A DNA stretch of 55,907 bases from a virus (lineage: Duplodnaviria > Caudoviricetes): positions 1-55,907 of the IMG/VR virus record IMGVR_UViG_3300027976_000049; one strand, written 5' to 3'. Positions 10,643 through 47,171 of this stretch are shown here, one piece after another (within the stretch, counting starts at the first letter, position 1; every line of letters begins with the position of its first letter). A model generated the notes under the pieces. That model did no database searches. It was not told where the DNA came from and was given only the letters and a program-made list of their open reading frames with translations. The translations under genes were made by a program, and so were the position numbers.

Positions 10643-11035
10643 TTAATTTTTCTGATCTACAATACTTTTTCGGTTTCTGTAAGTCGCATATTTTGCCACC
10701 CCTTCGTACATATTTCCAACCACTTTATTTAAGTTACCTAAAGATTCATTTAATGATACGATTCTGCCTTTTTGGTCAATATAACTACACCACCAAGCCG
10801 CTTTATCTTCGTTCCAGTAAACCTCCTGCAAGTCTTTTGTATCGCAATTCTCAATAATATCACCCTCAAAAACTTCTGTGCCATTTATTTCAGCATCATT
10901 TGATCCTGTATATTGCATTATAATTGCATCATCTCTTAATATCCCAAAGAAACGGCTAATTCCATAATTTGTACTAATCGGCATTGTTAACATTTTGCCG
11001 TCATCAAACGCTCTAAAATTTAATTCTCTTTTCAT
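10643..11035 (-). CDS. YopX family protein
   Basis: RELNFRAFD, MQYTG, EVFEGDI and VVGNMYE motifs. Confidence 0.9.
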   Translation of the reverse strand: MKRELNFRAFDDGKMLTMPISTNYGISRFFGILRDDAIIMQYTGSNDAEINGTEVFEGDIIENCDTKDLQEVYWNEDKAAWWCSYIDQKGRIVSLNESLGNLNKVVGNMYEGVAKYATYRNRKSIVDQKN

Positions 11036-17947: not shown

Positions 17948-19003
17948 TTAATAATGTCCTTGCTTATCTGTGGACTTCTCTACTGAAACGTTATTTGGTA
18001 TAGATGGAATAGGAATAGCAGGCATAGCAGGTCCCATGATCATCTTAACGTTTTTACGGCACATTGCTGTATATTCTGCTGTCTTAGTTAATTCGCTAGT
18101 TCTCCATGTTTCAATATATGTAAGTGTGGTTTTAAATAACTCCATACCTATGCCCGCCTCGTCTGCTTCTAATTTTATATACGATTTGTATCTATCAGCA
18201 ACTGTGTCTATGTGAGACTTCAAATTCATTGTAGTATAATCCTTTATAGCTGTTGTTACTTCTACAAACGTGAAGTCGGTAATAGGCACCGTCCGTTTAT
18301 GCTTTGTGACAAATTCATCTCCGTTTATTTTACTAACTTTTAGTATTTGTCCCCGCTTAGTGTTATCGTTTATTGAAGGTACTGCAAAATGGTTCAATAT
18401 ATCACCCGCGGGTGTATCATTAAAATATTCTAATTGTCCTGACTTATTGTCTTCATGTTGTTTTATTACTTTCGCTGAAAGCATTGTATACCCACAACTG
18501 GTTGCGAAACTAACCATTGAACCTTTTAAACTAGAACGAGTATTTGTGTAGAAACTGTCGAGATTGTTCTTATTAAGAACTAAGATTATTTCAGAATTAA
18601 TTGACATTTTATGTTCTTCGCTTTTTGCAATTGCTCGGCCTAATGCAAATATACCATTACCGGTTGCTTCTATTTGACGTTTATTAAGTTCCTCTTTAGT
18701 TATAACCATATGTGCAACCGTATCTTCTGATTCTTCTATTTGTTTATCTCCAATTTTAAGGTAATTGTTGCCATTTTGTTTTTTAGTACCCATATAATAA
18801 GTATCGCTATCTGCATCCTTAAACAGTGCAGAGTCTTTAGTTATGGCTCCATTAACCTTTAATTGTGTGAACTTAATAAATTTATTAGTTGCATCAATAG
18901 TAGTCGTCGGGTTCTTAGATGCACCTGTTAATAGCGCTGAGATATCACCTTGTTCAACTTGCTCGTTAATTCTATTCCAATCATTAAAATTTAATACATT
19001 TAT
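17948..19003 (-). CDS. Putative virion protein, likely starting at ATA 19003
   Basis: The frame is open for 70 codons upstream of ATG 18793, reading INVLNFNDWNRINEQVEQ... directly after TAAATA motifs. Confidence 0.7.
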   Translation of the reverse strand: MNVLNFNDWNRINEQVEQGDISALLTGASKNPTTTIDATNKFIKFTQLKVNGAITKDSALFKDADSDTYYMGTKKQNGNNYLKIGDKQIEESEDTVAHMVITKEELNKRQIEATGNGIFALGRAIAKSEEHKMSINSEIILVLNKNNLDSFYTNTRSSLKGSMVSFATSCGYTMLSAKVIKQHEDNKSGQLEYFNDTPAGDILNHFAVPSINDNTKRGQILKVSKINGDEFVTKHKRTVPITDFTFVEVTTAIKDYTTMNLKSHIDTVADRYKSYIKLEADEAGIGMELFKTTLTYIETWRTSELTKTAEYTAMCRKNVKMIMGPAMPAIPIPSIPNNVSVEKSTDKQGHY

Positions 19004-21307: not shown

Positions 21308-22741
21308 CTACTTGACTTTTAATGAATTTACCATATTATCGATGGCAATACATTCATTAAAAGTATTTGCGGTATGTTTATCATTTCTCAATTTAATGAA
21401 GACGGGGTGTAATAGTGAATAGTTTCCTTTACTGTCGTGTGATATTCCAGAGCATTTTACTTCAACAATTGTTCCCATTAATTTATCCTGATTGTTAGTT
21501 ATGTATTTCATATCAACATCTGAAATTCCAGCAGGAGATGTTTTAAGTAATCCATCTTCACATTCAACATCAATTGACGATATTAACAATTCATTCTTAG
21601 ATCCAGGAGTTCCATAATTAAAGCTTACAATCTTTAAATCATAATAGTCAACTTTTTTCATCTTGATCTGCCAGTTTGGCTTTCCGTCCTTCCATATACC
21701 ATCTATTGATTTAAGAATAGTTCCTTCTAATCCTCTATTTAAAGCATCTACAAAGTGCTCCATTGCTTCTGAGTATGACGTTACTATCTTATGTTCGACA
21801 ATATCAACATTCATGTCAGTATCTTGATTAGCAATGATCTCAATCATTAACTCATGTAATCGTTTACTATATGGTACTAGAGATTTATTAGCATCATAAT
21901 ATTCTAATTCAATCCTATCCCATACCGTATAAACAATTAGATTTAGTAATTCGTTATACGTTCGATTGTATCGTTCAAATAAGTGAGACATTTCATCACT
22001 TACGTCAATTCCGTCTCTTAATTTTGTAGTAATTCCAATTACTGAATTTACGATTCCATTAGCAGTATTCCTATCGAACCCCGGGATAGTTAATTCCCCA
22101 TTTAATACACAGTCGCCGAACTTAGATAGATCATCCATTAGTTTTGATCCAGTAAGTAATGTAGTTTCTCCAGATCTAGATTCTAAATATGCTTCGCCAT
22201 CTTCTATGATAGCATTACAATATCTGCCATCCATTTTGATTTGACTGTAAGCCATTGTTCTAGTTTCCGTTCCTTTAGTTTGCGTATTAGTTGGAGTAAA
22301 TATATCCTTCGCTAATTTTTCACTAAATGCTTTAGCTCCCATGTAAGGAGTTTTTTCAATTAATTTAGGAAATATCTTATTGATGTTAGATGTACCCATT
22401 CCAATCTTTAAATCTTTTTCAATTATTCGTTGAATAACGTAAGCATCGTCAGGAGATGATGTTCCCAATATTGATTTAAGATGTTCAATTCCTGCATGTC
22501 CAGTAACATCCCGGTTGCTTAATTGAGATAATCCTCCGTCAATCGATGATTCTAAATCTCCAACAAACGCAGATTGTTTAAAGTCAGGAAGCTTCTTAAT
22601 ATAATATTTTACCCTTGGACTTTTAGCCGCATATAATACTTTCTTTAATAGTTCATTACTATCATATTTTCTAAGGATATTCATTTTAGCGTTTGAACCT
22701 GGTTCATTTGCTATTTCGTCAAGTATTGCTTTAATATTCAT
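21308..22741 (-). CDS. ATP-dependent DNA ligase (T4 gp30-like)
   Basis: QIKMDGRY (KxDG), LNGEL, EGTILK, WQIKMK and LLHPVF motifs. Confidence 0.95.
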   Translation of the reverse strand: MNIKAILDEIANEPGSNAKMNILRKYDSNELLKKVLYAAKSPRVKYYIKKLPDFKQSAFVGDLESSIDGGLSQLSNRDVTGHAGIEHLKSILGTSSPDDAYVIQRIIEKDLKIGMGTSNINKIFPKLIEKTPYMGAKAFSEKLAKDIFTPTNTQTKGTETRTMAYSQIKMDGRYCNAIIEDGEAYLESRSGETTLLTGSKLMDDLSKFGDCVLNGELTIPGFDRNTANGIVNSVIGITTKLRDGIDVSDEMSHLFERYNRTYNELLNLIVYTVWDRIELEYYDANKSLVPYSKRLHELMIEIIANQDTDMNVDIVEHKIVTSYSEAMEHFVDALNRGLEGTILKSIDGIWKDGKPNWQIKMKKVDYYDLKIVSFNYGTPGSKNELLISSIDVECEDGLLKTSPAGISDVDMKYITNNQDKLMGTIVEVKCSGISHDSKGNYSLLHPVFIKLRNDKHTANTFNECIAIDNMVNSLKVK

Positions 22742-22772
22742 AATATTATTATACTAAATTTCCTTATAATAT

Positions 22773-22844
22773 AAAAACCCGAGAAGTAGCGATACTATCT
22801 CGGGGGTTTTTCATAGCGTAACTATGACGGGTCCTAAGCCGTTA
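22773..22844 (-). ncRNA. Structured 3'-UTR/terminator element complementary to 23S rRNA H69-H71
   Basis: + strand CGTAACTATGACGGGTCCTAAG (22817-22838) and GTAGCGA (22786-22792) versus 23S rRNA CGTAACTATAACGGTCCTAAG-GTAGCGA. Hairpin CCCGAGA-AGTA-GCGA-TACT-A-TCTCGGG flanked by A and T tracts. Confidence 0.6.
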
Positions 22845-23276
22845 AAATTTTAAAGTAGGATTCTCCATGTTTAAATGAGCATCTGCCCATCCTGATTTAA
22901 GTTCTACTGCATATTGTGCAGGTGCTTTACTTTTGTATATTTTTAAATTTTCATCTGATTCTCCATTATATGGATCCATTGTAAAGCTATCTACCATATT
23001 CATATCTGCATCAAAGAATAAGATATCAAGTGCATAATTAACGTTTTTCATCCAGAAATCTAATATACTTGGATTTTCATATATAAATATCATGCCAGTA
23101 TTGGCATGGGGCTCATCTGAGTCCATTAAACCTCTTGCCTTTGTATTATCATTTGCAGCTACTATAAGTTTAATAGGAGTGCCTGATATGCTAGCGCTTA
23201 TTTCCTTTCCATCGATGTCACTTTTTCGACAAAAACCTTCAAACATTGGAATTATTCTATGTGTAATATATTGCAT
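22842..23276 (-). CDS. DUF192 family protein
   Basis: ARGLM, GMIFIY, FWMKNVNYALDILF and AQYAVELKSG motifs. Confidence 0.9.
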   Translation of the reverse strand: MQYITHRIIPMFEGFCRKSDIDGKEISASISGTPIKLIVAANDNTKARGLMDSDEPHANTGMIFIYENPSILDFWMKNVNYALDILFFDADMNMVDSFTMDPYNGESDENLKIYKSKAPAQYAVELKSGWADAHLNMENPTLKF

Positions 23277-23313
23277 ATATGATTATTTATCTAATTAGAA
23301 GTTGATAACTATG

Positions 23314-24243
23314 TTATAACGATATTAGCATATCCATTAATTCTTGCTGAGGAAACATATCAGATTTATCTTTCCTTATATTAGAATGTGTTAGTAGACC
23401 TTTAGCTTTGCCATAATATGCATCTTTATTCCATTCGAATGCATCTGCACCTTTTGCTTTAATCCATGTTGGTAATCCTGCTATAATGTCAATATTATCT
23501 CTATCACCAATAAATAATATTAAATTTTTCAATGATTCAATTTGCATATCAGAATATTTGTGCCATGTTGAGTGACCTCTAAATGGCTTATCTAATATAA
23601 CTATTTGTGAATCATCTGCTAATACTCCAGAATATGTATAATATGAATTTGGGTTTTTAGTTATCCAAATACCGTTTTTAGTATATCCACCCTTTGTTAA
23701 ATATGCAAAGTTATTTACTTCAATACCTACTGAGTTTTTATGCATACTCTGAGAACCATTCTTTCCTAAGTGCCATCCATAATTTCCAGCAGGAAATGAT
23801 TGTACAACATCACCGTCATAACTATCATCGTCACCCTTAACACTTGGTCCGCCAATTATGAATTCAGTTGAAACTGCTCCTCTAGAATCTCTACCCCAAT
23901 GATCGATTGTTTTATATGGATTTTGCCAGCCGGCAGTATGGTGCAAAAACATATATTCTGGATTAATTGGACCTTGTTTGTATTCAGATATTGGTAAAAA
24001 ATGTTTGTTTATAATTAATCCATTTTCTGTAGAATAGTACGTCTCCGAAAGGTCAGTAGTAGCCAAACCCATACAATTCCAAGTGGCAGGGCCCACAATG
24101 CCATCAGCAACAAGACCATTATCGGCTTGCCATTCTTTAACAGATCTTTCTGTTCCTTTACCAAAGATGCCATCTATTGTAATATCCAAGAATTCCTGAA
24201 GTTCATTAACATAATTTCCGATGGTTCCAATTTTTAAAATCAT
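23314..24243 (-). CDS. N-acetylmuramoyl-L-alanine amidase with PG-binding domain
   Basis: IDGIFGKGT...GLVADGIVGPATW, then LHHTAG, WHLG, SVGIEV and THSN..KDKSD. Confidence 0.9.
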   Translation of the reverse strand: MILKIGTIGNYVNELQEFLDITIDGIFGKGTERSVKEWQADNGLVADGIVGPATWNCMGLATTDLSETYYSTENGLIINKHFLPISEYKQGPINPEYMFLHHTAGWQNPYKTIDHWGRDSRGAVSTEFIIGGPSVKGDDDSYDGDVVQSFPAGNYGWHLGKNGSQSMHKNSVGIEVNNFAYLTKGGYTKNGIWITKNPNSYYTYSGVLADDSQIVILDKPFRGHSTWHKYSDMQIESLKNLILFIGDRDNIDIIAGLPTWIKAKGADAFEWNKDAYYGKAKGLLTHSNIRKDKSDMFPQQELMDMLISL

Positions 24244-24325
24244 AATTAATTTTTAATGAGCACTAGAATATGGAGCGTCGTATATGAAGTTCCCTATTCT
24301 AGCGTTTGAGATATTGATGAATATA

Positions 24326-24664
24326 TTAAGCTTCTTCTTCTTCTTCTTCTTCTTCTTCTTCTTCGCCTTCTTCAGTTTCCTCTTCCATTCCCTCTTCGTC
24401 TTCACCTTCTTCATCTGGTTCTAACGCTTCAAGTCTTTCAGTTAAATCATCAATCATAGCCTTTAGGTCTTCTAGAGTAACTTCTTCCTCTTCCATTCCC
24501 TCTTCGTCTTCTGCAAATTCATCTGCAGCTTGGTCTTCTTCTTCTTCTTCTGGATTAGCTCCATATTGCATTCCTGCACTTAAGCCATCTTCTTCTTCGA
24601 AACCGGCTTGTTCGTTTAATGCCTTTGATTTCATGAATCCTTTAAAATCTTTTACTTTACTCAT
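24326..24664 (-). CDS. Highly acidic protein, putative prohead core/scaffold component
   Basis: Glu-rich with a short coiled coil (LEDLKAMIDDLTERLEAL). Tag VKDFKGF...LNE. GATAAATAATAA at 24679-24690. Confidence 0.7.
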   Translation of the reverse strand: MSKVKDFKGFMKSKALNEQAGFEEEDGLSAGMQYGANPEEEEEDQAADEFAEDEEGMEEEEVTLEDLKAMIDDLTERLEALEPDEEGEDEEGMEEETEEGEEEEEEEEEEEA

Positions 24665-46545: not shown

Positions 46546-47171
46546 AAGTCAAAAATGTGATTTAATGTTTCCCTAAATGCAGGGTTTTTTTGTAATACTT
46601 TAGTCTTAATATCGCTTCGTATTTTTCGAAGCTTGGTTTTTACTGTGTTTTCATTTATTGAATATCGATATGCTATACATCTAACCTTCTCTCTATTAAT
46701 CATTTTATCGATAGCGATACTTTGTAATAATGTATCTTCTATTCCATATATTTCAGAGATAGTCATATCATATAAACTTTGGTATTCATCTTCAAATTTA
46801 ATAAATATTTCACCCTCATTGCATTCTCCACGTTCATGTCCGAGTTCAACATTTGTTGTTCTATTTTTCTTTTTTATATGTAGATAATATAATGTTTCAT
46901 TTCTAGCGATTGTATAAACCCATGTAGTAAATCTACCTTTATTAACATCAAATTTATGTATGTTGTTAAATATCTTCTTTAATGTAAACTGTAGTGCCTC
47001 ATCCGTATCATCACTATTTTGACATAATTTACTAATGTGATATCTAAGTTTTGGGTAAACTAGGGATGCTATTTCGTTTATTTCTCGCTCGGTTATTGAA
47101 CTATCGTTAAATTTTATTGATATTTGGTGAATTCTCTCATTAATAGTCTTGTTAGTTTTTTCAAATCCCAT
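46542..47171 (-). CDS. ECF-type RNA polymerase sigma factor
   Basis: Region 2 DEALQFT..KIF..IHKFD..KGRFTTWVYTIARN and region 4 IAYRYSINENTVKTKLRK, 209 aa. Confidence 0.9.
   Translation of the reverse strand: MGFEKTNKTINERIHQISIKFNDSSITEREINEIASLVYPKLRYHISKLCQNSDDTDEALQFTLKKIFNNIHKFDVNKGRFTTWVYTIARNETLYYLHIKKKNRTTNVELGHERGECNEGEIFIKFEDEYQSLYDMTISEIYGIEDTLLQSIAIDKMINREKVRCIAYRYSINENTVKTKLRKIRSDIKTKVLQKNPAFRETLNHIFDL

Follow-up and report, generated by a model that had tools for sequence, protein, structure and literature searches.

What is a piece of antisense ribosomal sequence doing between two genes of a phage? The question is raised by an IMG/VR record of an uncultivated member of the Caudoviricetes (IMGVR_UViG_3300027976_000049; 55,907 bases, 31% G+C, completeness rating 22%), which we call the window and always mean in its full length. 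On its minus strand, between a gene for a DUF192 protein and a gene for an ATP-dependent DNA ligase, a sequence-only reading had noticed two blocks complementary to adjoining parts of helices 69 to 71 of 23S ribosomal RNA (rRNA). The blocks stand in permuted order, and they had been taken for a ribosome-directed element in the 3' untranslated region (UTR) of the DUF192 gene. We argue from comparison of sequence and fold that this element is one copy of a previously undescribed structured RNA family of about 80 nt, found in many uncultivated aquatic phages. We also argue that the antisense relation to 23S H69-H71 is non-random at the level of the family.

The window copy is a full-length match of the family covariance model, R1 (22764-22848, minus strand, like all parts of the element given below; 66.4 bits, E ~1e-15, model positions 1-82 of 82). 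It is the sole strong match in the window, where the remaining ones reach at most 16.5 bits, and no repeat of the element was found in the 55,907 bases. The family RNA consists of a weak hairpin P1 that presents UUAGGACCGU, a variable hairpin P2, an A-rich spacer, a terminator hairpin P3 and a U tract. The intergenic RNA of the window folds into these three hairpins with an energy of -22.5 kcal/mol (z = -2.19). P1 (22827-22842) is found in both the minimum free energy and the centroid folds. It pairs ACGG (22842-22839) with CCGU (22830-22827) around the loop CUUAGGAC (22838-22831), and the stop codon of DUF192 ends on its first A. Conserved segment 1, UUAGGACC(C)GU (22827-22837), is antisense to 23S 1919-1928, and the window copy of it has one additional C. 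P2 (22812-22826) reads CAUAG-UUACG-CUAUG, and its 5' arm and loop are the remainder of the first of the two blocks noticed earlier. The spacer (22805-22811) is AAAAA followed by CC, and an A-rich run stands at the same position in the family alignments. P3 (22778-22804) has the stem CCCGAGA/UCUCGGG and a 13-nt apex (22797-22785) that holds conserved segment 2, UCGCUAC (22786-22792), which by comparison with 23S is antisense to 1930-1936. Together with the TTTTT at 22777-22773 it has the features of an intrinsic (Rho-independent) terminator. The same is true across the family, where a U tract follows P3 in the members inspected. A simple terminator scanner missed P3 because its loop limit is 8 nt.

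The sequence-only reading proposed that the two blocks be looked for in other phages and that a covariance model be built and compared with Rfam. Both blocks do recur in related and unrelated phages. The family was recruited with four IUPAC scans of IMG/VR that differed in the motif parts they fixed, plus R1, which was built from 18 sequences and by which membership was judged. It comes to 96 copies, 76 of them distinct, in 46 clusters below 85% identity, and the permuted order of the blocks is a constant feature of it. The first scan returned 29 stretches and R1 confirmed 29/29. Freeing the P1 loop gave 45 stretches, 19 of them new and 3 of these members. With the P1 stem free there were 63, 34 new, of which 15 are members. 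With the apex free there were 95; 80 were examined, 60 were new, and 59 of these 60 are members. One locus (L109, 27 bits) was removed before clustering. Another (L100, 31 bits, without a U tract) and the 15 other non-family matches of the scan with the P1 loop free were judged by eye.

The copy number is one. Each of the 5/5 whole IMG/VR records checked (47-281 kb) has one strong copy, including the largest, a 281-kb record rated 96% complete, and so do the window and LR756501.1, a 735-kb uncultured-phage assembly (50.2 bits). LR756501.1 and LR756503.1, which has the same BLAST match, are the sole GenBank records matching, and both are uncultured assemblies. With blastn, two family copies gave no match among GenBank phages (E up to 1). 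Cellulophaga phage phi4:1, distantly related by its ligase, lacks the element in its complete genome. Across 596 billion bases of prokaryote genomes there was one match, on a 13.5-kb contig of a metagenome-assembled genome. Rfam 15 gave nothing at the element when window positions 22000-23600 were searched with E up to 10, and only true tRNAs, with nothing at the elements, for four other loci (L057, L148, L172 and L196) with E up to 0.1. A known Rfam RNA family was therefore rejected as the identity of the element, since there is no Rfam 15 match.

Five copies (L007, L008, G001, G009 and LR756501.1) came to light by routes that used no motif pattern, namely ligase neighbourhoods, BLAST or the model, and all five retain conserved segment 1. 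Protein searches anchored on the ligase gave 21 viral and 25 metagenome loci. A three-hairpin element lies directly upstream of the ligase in L007 and L008, whose ligases are 64% and 61% identical to that of the window. Of the 25 metagenome loci 16 were considered, and L032, L033, L037 and L050 have it there too; L050 does not differ from the window, and the contigs of L033 and L037 are equal in size to those of L007 and L008. Unrelated plain terminators take the place of the element upstream of the ligase in L004, L005, L006, L028 and L031, and L048 has no terminator there. In L007 a 218-aa open reading frame (ORF) stands between DUF192 and the element. In two closer relatives, G001 (found by BLAST) and G009 (found by the covariance model), the element follows DUF192 directly, with the ligase about 3 kb away. 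These arrangements indicate that in this clade the element shares the DUF192-ligase neighbourhood and is bound to neither gene.

Covariation supports the fold. In a model-guided alignment of 22 sequences compensatory changes occur at 5/5 pairs of P2 and 7/7 of P3, and 90.6% of cells are paired against 73.0% in shuffles (0/500 reach it) and 27-40% in slid controls. A second, non-overlapping set (75 rows, 55 distinct) again gives 5/5 and 7/7, with 85.7% paired against 60.0% (0/500). Both alignments lean towards the structure of the model because they were fitted to it. The sequence of P2 differs between lineages, and it frequently ends in a UACG, UUCG or GCAA tetraloop. The stem sequences of P3 vary freely through compensatory change. 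In P1 the 5' strand is variable (ACGG, ACAG, AUGG, ACGU, ACGA) and the 3' strand is nearly fixed. There are two compensated P1 variants, ACAG/CUGU in L108 and ACGA/UCGU in LR756501.1, and in L114 a segment further downstream takes over as the partner of the 3' strand. One lineage (L113, L123, L129, L134, L139) has a separate hairpin, CCCCA CCAT TGGGG, immediately before P1. This suggests that the upstream gene there may have its own terminator and the element its own transcript.

The strand can be read from the wobble pairs. P2 and P3 contain 19 G-U cells and 1 A-C cell, which means that the folded molecule is the RNA of the gene-sense strand (minus in the window), the one that is antisense to rRNA. 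This speaks against the earlier suggestion of a mimic or decoy of H69/H71 made from the plus strand.

How good is the relation to rRNA? The reference was the 23S rRNA of E. coli rrlH (L001), and the rRNA numbering used in the sequence-only reading proved right when the window was aligned to it. E. coli and the Rfam bacterial large subunit (LSU) consensus do not differ in the target stretch, which is mostly in upper case in the latter. Fifteen representatives sharing less than 90% identity gave a majority consensus in which rRNA played no part. It agrees with the reverse complement of E. coli 23S 1907-1929 at 23/23 positions (blastn-short E 4.4e-9 against the rrn operon). The consensus apex matches 1928-1936 at 9/9. 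Identity to antisense rRNA was then taken position by position over the 46 cluster representatives in an ungapped register. It is 93-100% at 1928-1919, a range partly fixed by the search patterns. At the 12 unforced positions 1918-1907 it is 41-74% at 11 and 22% at 1911, and the plurality base agrees at 11/12. At 1906-1900 it falls to 11-20%, with the plurality base agreeing at 0/7. On these numbers there is a sharp boundary of homology at 1907. UCGC is present in the apex of 39/40 distinct sequences from the pattern that left the apex free, the exception being L167, which is not an R1 member, and the bases after UCGC are UAC in 87-93% of representatives. In the L172 subfamily the similarity extends to about 1945 (15/17 by inspection; blastn 9/9 to 1937-1945). 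The relation can also be found blindly. When one member (L162) was compared with GenBank phage records by an unguided BLAST, 20 records matched its bases 11-33 at 91.3%, 8 of them annotated as 23S rRNA. It must be said that many of the matches in that collection are short records filed as phage, with some bacterial contigs, that carry 23S sequence. Those look like host contamination or misfiled records.

We argue that the ancestor of the family carried antisense 23S from about 1907 to about 1945, in two pieces of swapped order that overlap by about 3 nt (1927-1929). What is nearly constant today is UUAGGACCGU, the P1 loop and 3' strand opposite 1919-1928, and UCGC(UAC), the P3 apex opposite 1930-1936. 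P2 retains a partial memory of the rRNA sequence. Of the first block of the sequence-only reading only about 11 nt are strictly conserved. Its ATAGTTACG half lies in P2, which differs in sequence from member to member and covaries. The likeness to rRNA, 23 + 9 nt in swapped order, is antisense and not that of a collinear LSU fragment; the bacterial LSU model RF02541, which detects collinear sense-strand homology, gave 0 matches in the window record.

The explanation we consider best, and which we put forward tentatively as somewhat short of an even chance, is that the element RNA pairs with 23S 1919-1936 in nascent or free 50S subunits. The element would be expressed either as a small RNA with a 5' end of its own or at the 3' end of the mRNA from the upstream gene, and the transcript would end at the element's own intrinsic terminator. 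Its two exposed segments would pair with the adjoining and universally conserved positions 1919-1936, that is, the 3' strand of H69 and the junction towards H70/H71. Pairing in nascent or free 50S would interfere with the large subunit or tether it. In the stems of P2 and P3 only the pairing is kept. A more specific version is possible but doubtful. It supposes that during takeover a phage antisense RNA, with both loops on 23S 1919-1936, blocks subunit joining or 50S maturation or marks the rRNA for cleavage.

The first argument for pairing is that 23S rRNA is the only sequence known to us that is complementary to both segments, and at adjoining positions. The second is the direction of the variation, which mostly leans towards keeping the rRNA pairing. 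Opposite an rRNA G the element has C or U in 44/46 (1929, block 1), 45/45 (1930) and 43/45 (1929, block 2), and opposite U1939 it has A or G in 43/45. Both compensated P1 variants change C to U on the strand that faces the rRNA. The third is the lineage of L119, L130, L132, L133 and L138, which has 20/20 rRNA-complementary bases plus one insertion despite a shifted P2. Since complementarity is kept there with P2 moved, selection appears to act on the sequence and not on the fold alone.

Complements of both segments were also looked for elsewhere in the window (about 22% of the genome), and none is convincing. A target encoded by the phage within the window was rejected for that reason. The apex complement has 6 sites at up to 2 mismatches against 2.05 expected, a number reached in 3/100 shuffles, and one of the six is the element itself. 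The 12-mer GATAGCGATACT occurs twice (18800-18811, minus; 46710-46721, plus), one mismatch from the complement of the apex segment.

A number of points weigh against rRNA pairing, and we give them together. The swapped order of the segments makes one continuous duplex with the rRNA impossible. In mature ribosomes the target is base-paired or buried. The P1 loop matches the anticodon loop of tRNA-Leu equally well. Several variants break the complementarity: in L007, A1927 faces C and A1936 faces A; in G009, G1930 faces G; and the UCGCAAC and UCGCUCC apex subfamilies have a mismatch at 1932 or 1931. When 12 representatives were scanned for duplex energy against E. coli 16S, 23S and 5S, the H69 region came first in 5/12, and for the window copy it was outside the top 3, by a method unable to represent the swapped order. 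The patterns with which most members were recruited fixed parts of both conserved segments, so the near-invariance of these is partly by construction. The evidence free of this constraint consists of positions 1918-1907, the apex in the scan that left it free, the scan with the P1 loop free, and the five copies found without motif patterns.

The last such point is the window taken alone. Window 22817-22838 (minus) matches the reverse complement of E. coli 23S 1909-1929 with 20/21 identities and one inserted C, as had been described. TCGCTAC (22792-22786) is the reverse complement of 1930-1936 and does sit in the apex of the terminator hairpin (22804-22778). The match is nevertheless at chance level (blastn score 30, E 0.74). 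In local alignments of the window with the rrn operon under three scoring schemes it ranks 5th, 2nd and 3rd (E 5.5, 0.74 and 1.3), and 54/100 order-1 Markov resamples of the window contain at least one match scoring 30 or more to the E. coli rrn operon. An unrelated site at 10736-10758, 20/23 to the complement of 23S 148-170, scores 31 and so equals or beats the H69 match; it was used as an internal control. The earlier statement that the match is unlikely by chance therefore does not hold for the window, but it does for the family. One can imagine that the resemblance to rRNA has neither historical nor functional meaning, and the statistics of the single window would allow it. The family makes coincidence very unlikely, because its consensus matches at 23/23 and 9/9, because 11/12 unforced positions agree with a sharp drop to background beyond them, and because a blind BLAST with one member retrieves annotated 23S rRNA. 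We consider coincidence extremely improbable.

A more serious alternative is that an antisense rDNA fragment was captured once and reused as a terminator, as a stabiliser of mRNA 3' ends or as a protein-binding RNA, so that the complementarity is only historical. The rRNA similarity decays with distance from the core and stops sharply at 1907, as it should in descent from a fragment. Compensatory change in P2 and P3 is what ordinary structural hairpins show as they evolve, P3 is a genuine hairpin with a U tract, and the broken complementarity of the variants above is what one expects of a relic. However, the parts kept most strictly are exactly those derived from rRNA, while the P3 stem varies freely by compensation, and the variation at the kept parts is biased towards changes compatible with wobble pairing. 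A generic terminator would not be limited to one copy per genome, and ordinary terminators do stand at the same place in the relatives L004, L005 and L006. We consider the relic unlikely, but it is an alternative to be taken seriously.

A scenario can also be proposed in which the blocks are read as double-stranded DNA, either as a site for a nuclease or recombinase that also recognises rDNA or as the scar of an insertion or excision at a hot spot in rrl. This stretch of rDNA is a known hot spot of insertion and cleavage. The element is single-copy, and the overlap of its blocks by about 3 nt (1927-1929) is like the flanks of an insertion with a short target duplication. The 19:1 excess of G-U over A-C and the rich covariation of the stems instead indicate selection on the RNA fold of one strand. 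No conserved nuclease or recombinase gene neighbours the element, and the single match in 596 billion bases of prokaryote genomes gives no sign of integration. We regard a DNA-level signal as a far-fetched explanation.

The tRNA-Leu resemblance deserves a separate argument. P1 would imitate the anticodon arm of tRNA-Leu(UAG) and P2 its long variable arm, and whatever reads that arm, for example an anticodon nuclease, a modification enzyme or the decoding site, would take the RNA as a decoy or ligand. Both phage tRNA-Leu(UAG) genes inspected (2/2) have an anticodon loop identical to the P1 loop CUUAGGA, and their variable arms are UUCG hairpins, like many P2. L007 has the sole loop variant, CUCAGGA, which once more holds a Leu anticodon (CAG). 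The same P1 sequence occurs within a tRNA-like gene of L167 (39.5 bits with the Rfam tRNA model, cut-off 29). tRNA genes lie in the fetched flanks of 10/60 loci, and in L169 the element is within a cluster of tRNA genes on the same strand. On the other hand, neither ARAGORN nor the Rfam tRNA model calls the element. Where an anticodon stem has 5 pairs, that of P1 has 3-4; the loop is of 6 or 8 nt in many copies, and acceptor, D and true T arms are missing. Mimicry of a tRNA also leaves the 23/23 and 9/9 identity to antisense rRNA unexplained. We judge it quite improbable. That the element is itself a tRNA or transfer-messenger RNA was rejected, as the detectors (RF00005, ARAGORN) are silent at it: ARAGORN called 0 genes over the whole window, and nothing at the element across 70 loci.

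The L167 gene is worth a description of its own. It is a 100-nt tRNA-like gene (L167:2885-2984, minus strand), negative by ARAGORN, with acceptor, D and T arms and a 40-nt insert in the anticodon arm. The insert contains the 16-nt P1 sequence of the family, which is followed by a small hairpin, and there is no R1 match. It hints at a variant that may be delivered on a tRNA body.

Does the element belong to the gene upstream of it? The sequence-only reading was correct that the 22-nt block (22838-22817) comes directly after the DUF192 stop codon (TAA, 22844-22842, minus strand). It had concluded that this is a 3'-UTR element of that gene, and the family speaks against it. The 42 proteins encoded upstream fall into 33 families and the 38 encoded downstream into 32, and in L007 a gene stands between DUF192 and the element. 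The commonest variant has a PD-(D/E)XK nuclease (PF12705) downstream, and another lies at an apparent prohead-protease/scaffold junction, judged by eye from translations. Because the flanking genes differ so widely, we see an autonomous module and not a device of the DUF192 3' UTR. One copy per genome beside diverse neighbours fits a trans-acting gene better than a cis regulator. On the genomic comparison we argue that the element is an autonomous small-RNA gene or module, neither a cis regulator of one gene family nor a generic terminator.

The position after a stop codon had led to the idea of a cis device that captures the just-terminated 50S or 70S through rRNA pairing and so affects recycling or re-initiation. 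The position itself holds for much of the family. The longest same-strand ORF ends at most 14 nt upstream in about 28/46 representatives (by our reading), and the gap was at most 15 nt in 24/29 of the first copies. A downstream gene on the same strand often starts 44-64 nt past the apex motif, which would suit re-initiation. Other copies do not keep the position: some follow gaps of more than 100 nt, and some have opposite-strand neighbours or lie between convergent or divergent genes. Short gaps are also normal in compact phage genomes. The terminator within the element should stop most transcripts short of the next gene, and a cis device does not account for one copy per genome beside unrelated genes. 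We find this scenario quite unlikely, and ribosome-directed action in trans, by pairing with free or nascent 50S, is still our preferred reading.

It is worth asking whether anything like this has been described before. Trans-encoded base-pairing small RNAs (sRNAs) with a Rho-independent terminator are a known class in bacteria and phages, and kissing through two loops is known from OxyS and fhlA. The element resembles such sRNAs in its length of about 80 nt, its exposed conserved segment near the 5' end, its structural hairpin, its A/U-rich spacer and its terminator with a U tail. Like OxyS on fhlA it has two separate loops complementary to neighbouring segments of a target. It differs in that its only evident target is 23S rRNA and not an mRNA, and in that Rfam 15 has no match for it. 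The C/D and H/ACA guide RNAs of archaea and eukaryotes are also small, and 10-20 nt of each are antisense to highly conserved rRNA. Inspection of the element sequences by eye showed no C/D or H/ACA box motifs. Unlike bipartite guides, the element has its antisense pieces swapped and is carried by a phage of bacteria.

Ribosome-associated noncoding RNAs and the calicivirus termination element TURBS are short RNAs that bind the ribosome through rRNA complementarity, and TURBS lies near a stop codon. These systems concern the small subunit or belong to eukaryotes or archaea, whereas the element complements domain IV of bacterial 23S. Sense-strand mimics of rRNA in mRNA leaders (those of ribosomal proteins, or the 23S-methyl motif) are short RNAs related to rRNA sequence too. 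They imitate the sense strand and thereby bind its proteins, and the element is the antisense strand. Among phages, the small stable RNAs of the T4 tRNA cluster come from single-copy small RNA genes of a large phage, and the element too is sometimes found in or near tRNA clusters. Those RNAs are longer. T4-type cassettes of an early promoter and a stem-loop are present in many copies per genome. The element, in contrast, has one strong copy per record in 5/5 IMG/VR records, LR756501.1 and the window.

Helix 69 with its junction forms the central intersubunit bridge and is treated as a drug and antisense target. To our knowledge, no natural bacterial or phage RNA that acts by pairing with 23S rRNA has been described. 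Synthetic antisense oligomers against 23S helix 69 address the same region of rRNA as a target (reviewed in PMC12828698). Those are man-made, and the element would be their natural counterpart. A full-text literature search, covering listings and abstracts, turned up no RNA of phages or bacteria that is antisense to helix 69, and the motif strings did not appear either; passages of PMC8545117 describe no such RNA. We rate the element as a new RNA family with a relation to rRNA that has no described counterpart, because there is no Rfam 15 match, there is no description in this literature, and the closest kinds of RNA differ from it.

If pairing with 23S is true, this would be a new viral way of handling host ribosomes, by a conserved single-copy RNA made from the antisense of exactly this stretch. 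It would also be a ready-made natural ligand for the helix 69 site. Even if the pairing is a relic, at the very least there is a widespread and uncatalogued structured RNA family, carried by phages whose genomes differ greatly in size (contigs of 281 kb and 735 kb among them). It is an example of a piece of rDNA that appears to have been captured and reused, and it is small, well defined and easily tested in vitro.

The genes beside the element in the window are context and not part of the family unit. Upstream is the DUF192 protein gene (22842-23276, minus strand, from the ORF listing; PF02643, E 6e-20). Downstream, after a spacing of 100 nt, is the ATP-dependent DNA ligase gene (21308-22741, minus strand; PF01068, E 6e-11). 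Cellulophaga phages account for 7/7 GenBank records that match the ligase region, a distant likeness with 70% identity over 6% of the query. A consensus scan found a promoter-like site (22748-22775, minus strand), TTTATA and TATAAT separated by 16 nt, between the U tract of the element and the start of the ligase. A TAGTATAAT-like box (window 22748-22756) lies 10-15 nt upstream of the ligase start, and it is present also in L004-L009, L027, L031-L037 and L048. As it is kept in relatives with and without the element, it is probably the promoter of the ligase.

Two minor observations concern other loci and the wider window. A further imperfect hairpin (AGCTTGCC TATG GCAGGCT) stands about 20-40 nt past the U tract in L056-L058, L060, L063-L069, L071, L072, L076, L077, L080 and L082. 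These loci are of the commonest variant, and in most of them the PD-(D/E)XK nuclease gene comes next; in L062, L066 and L069 it is a different gene, which starts 198 nt past the apex motif. Window positions 24253-24664 (minus strand) hold overlapping low-complexity frames, an ORF with lysine runs and a very acidic 112-aa ORF, and the latter has counterparts at the same place in L007 and L053.

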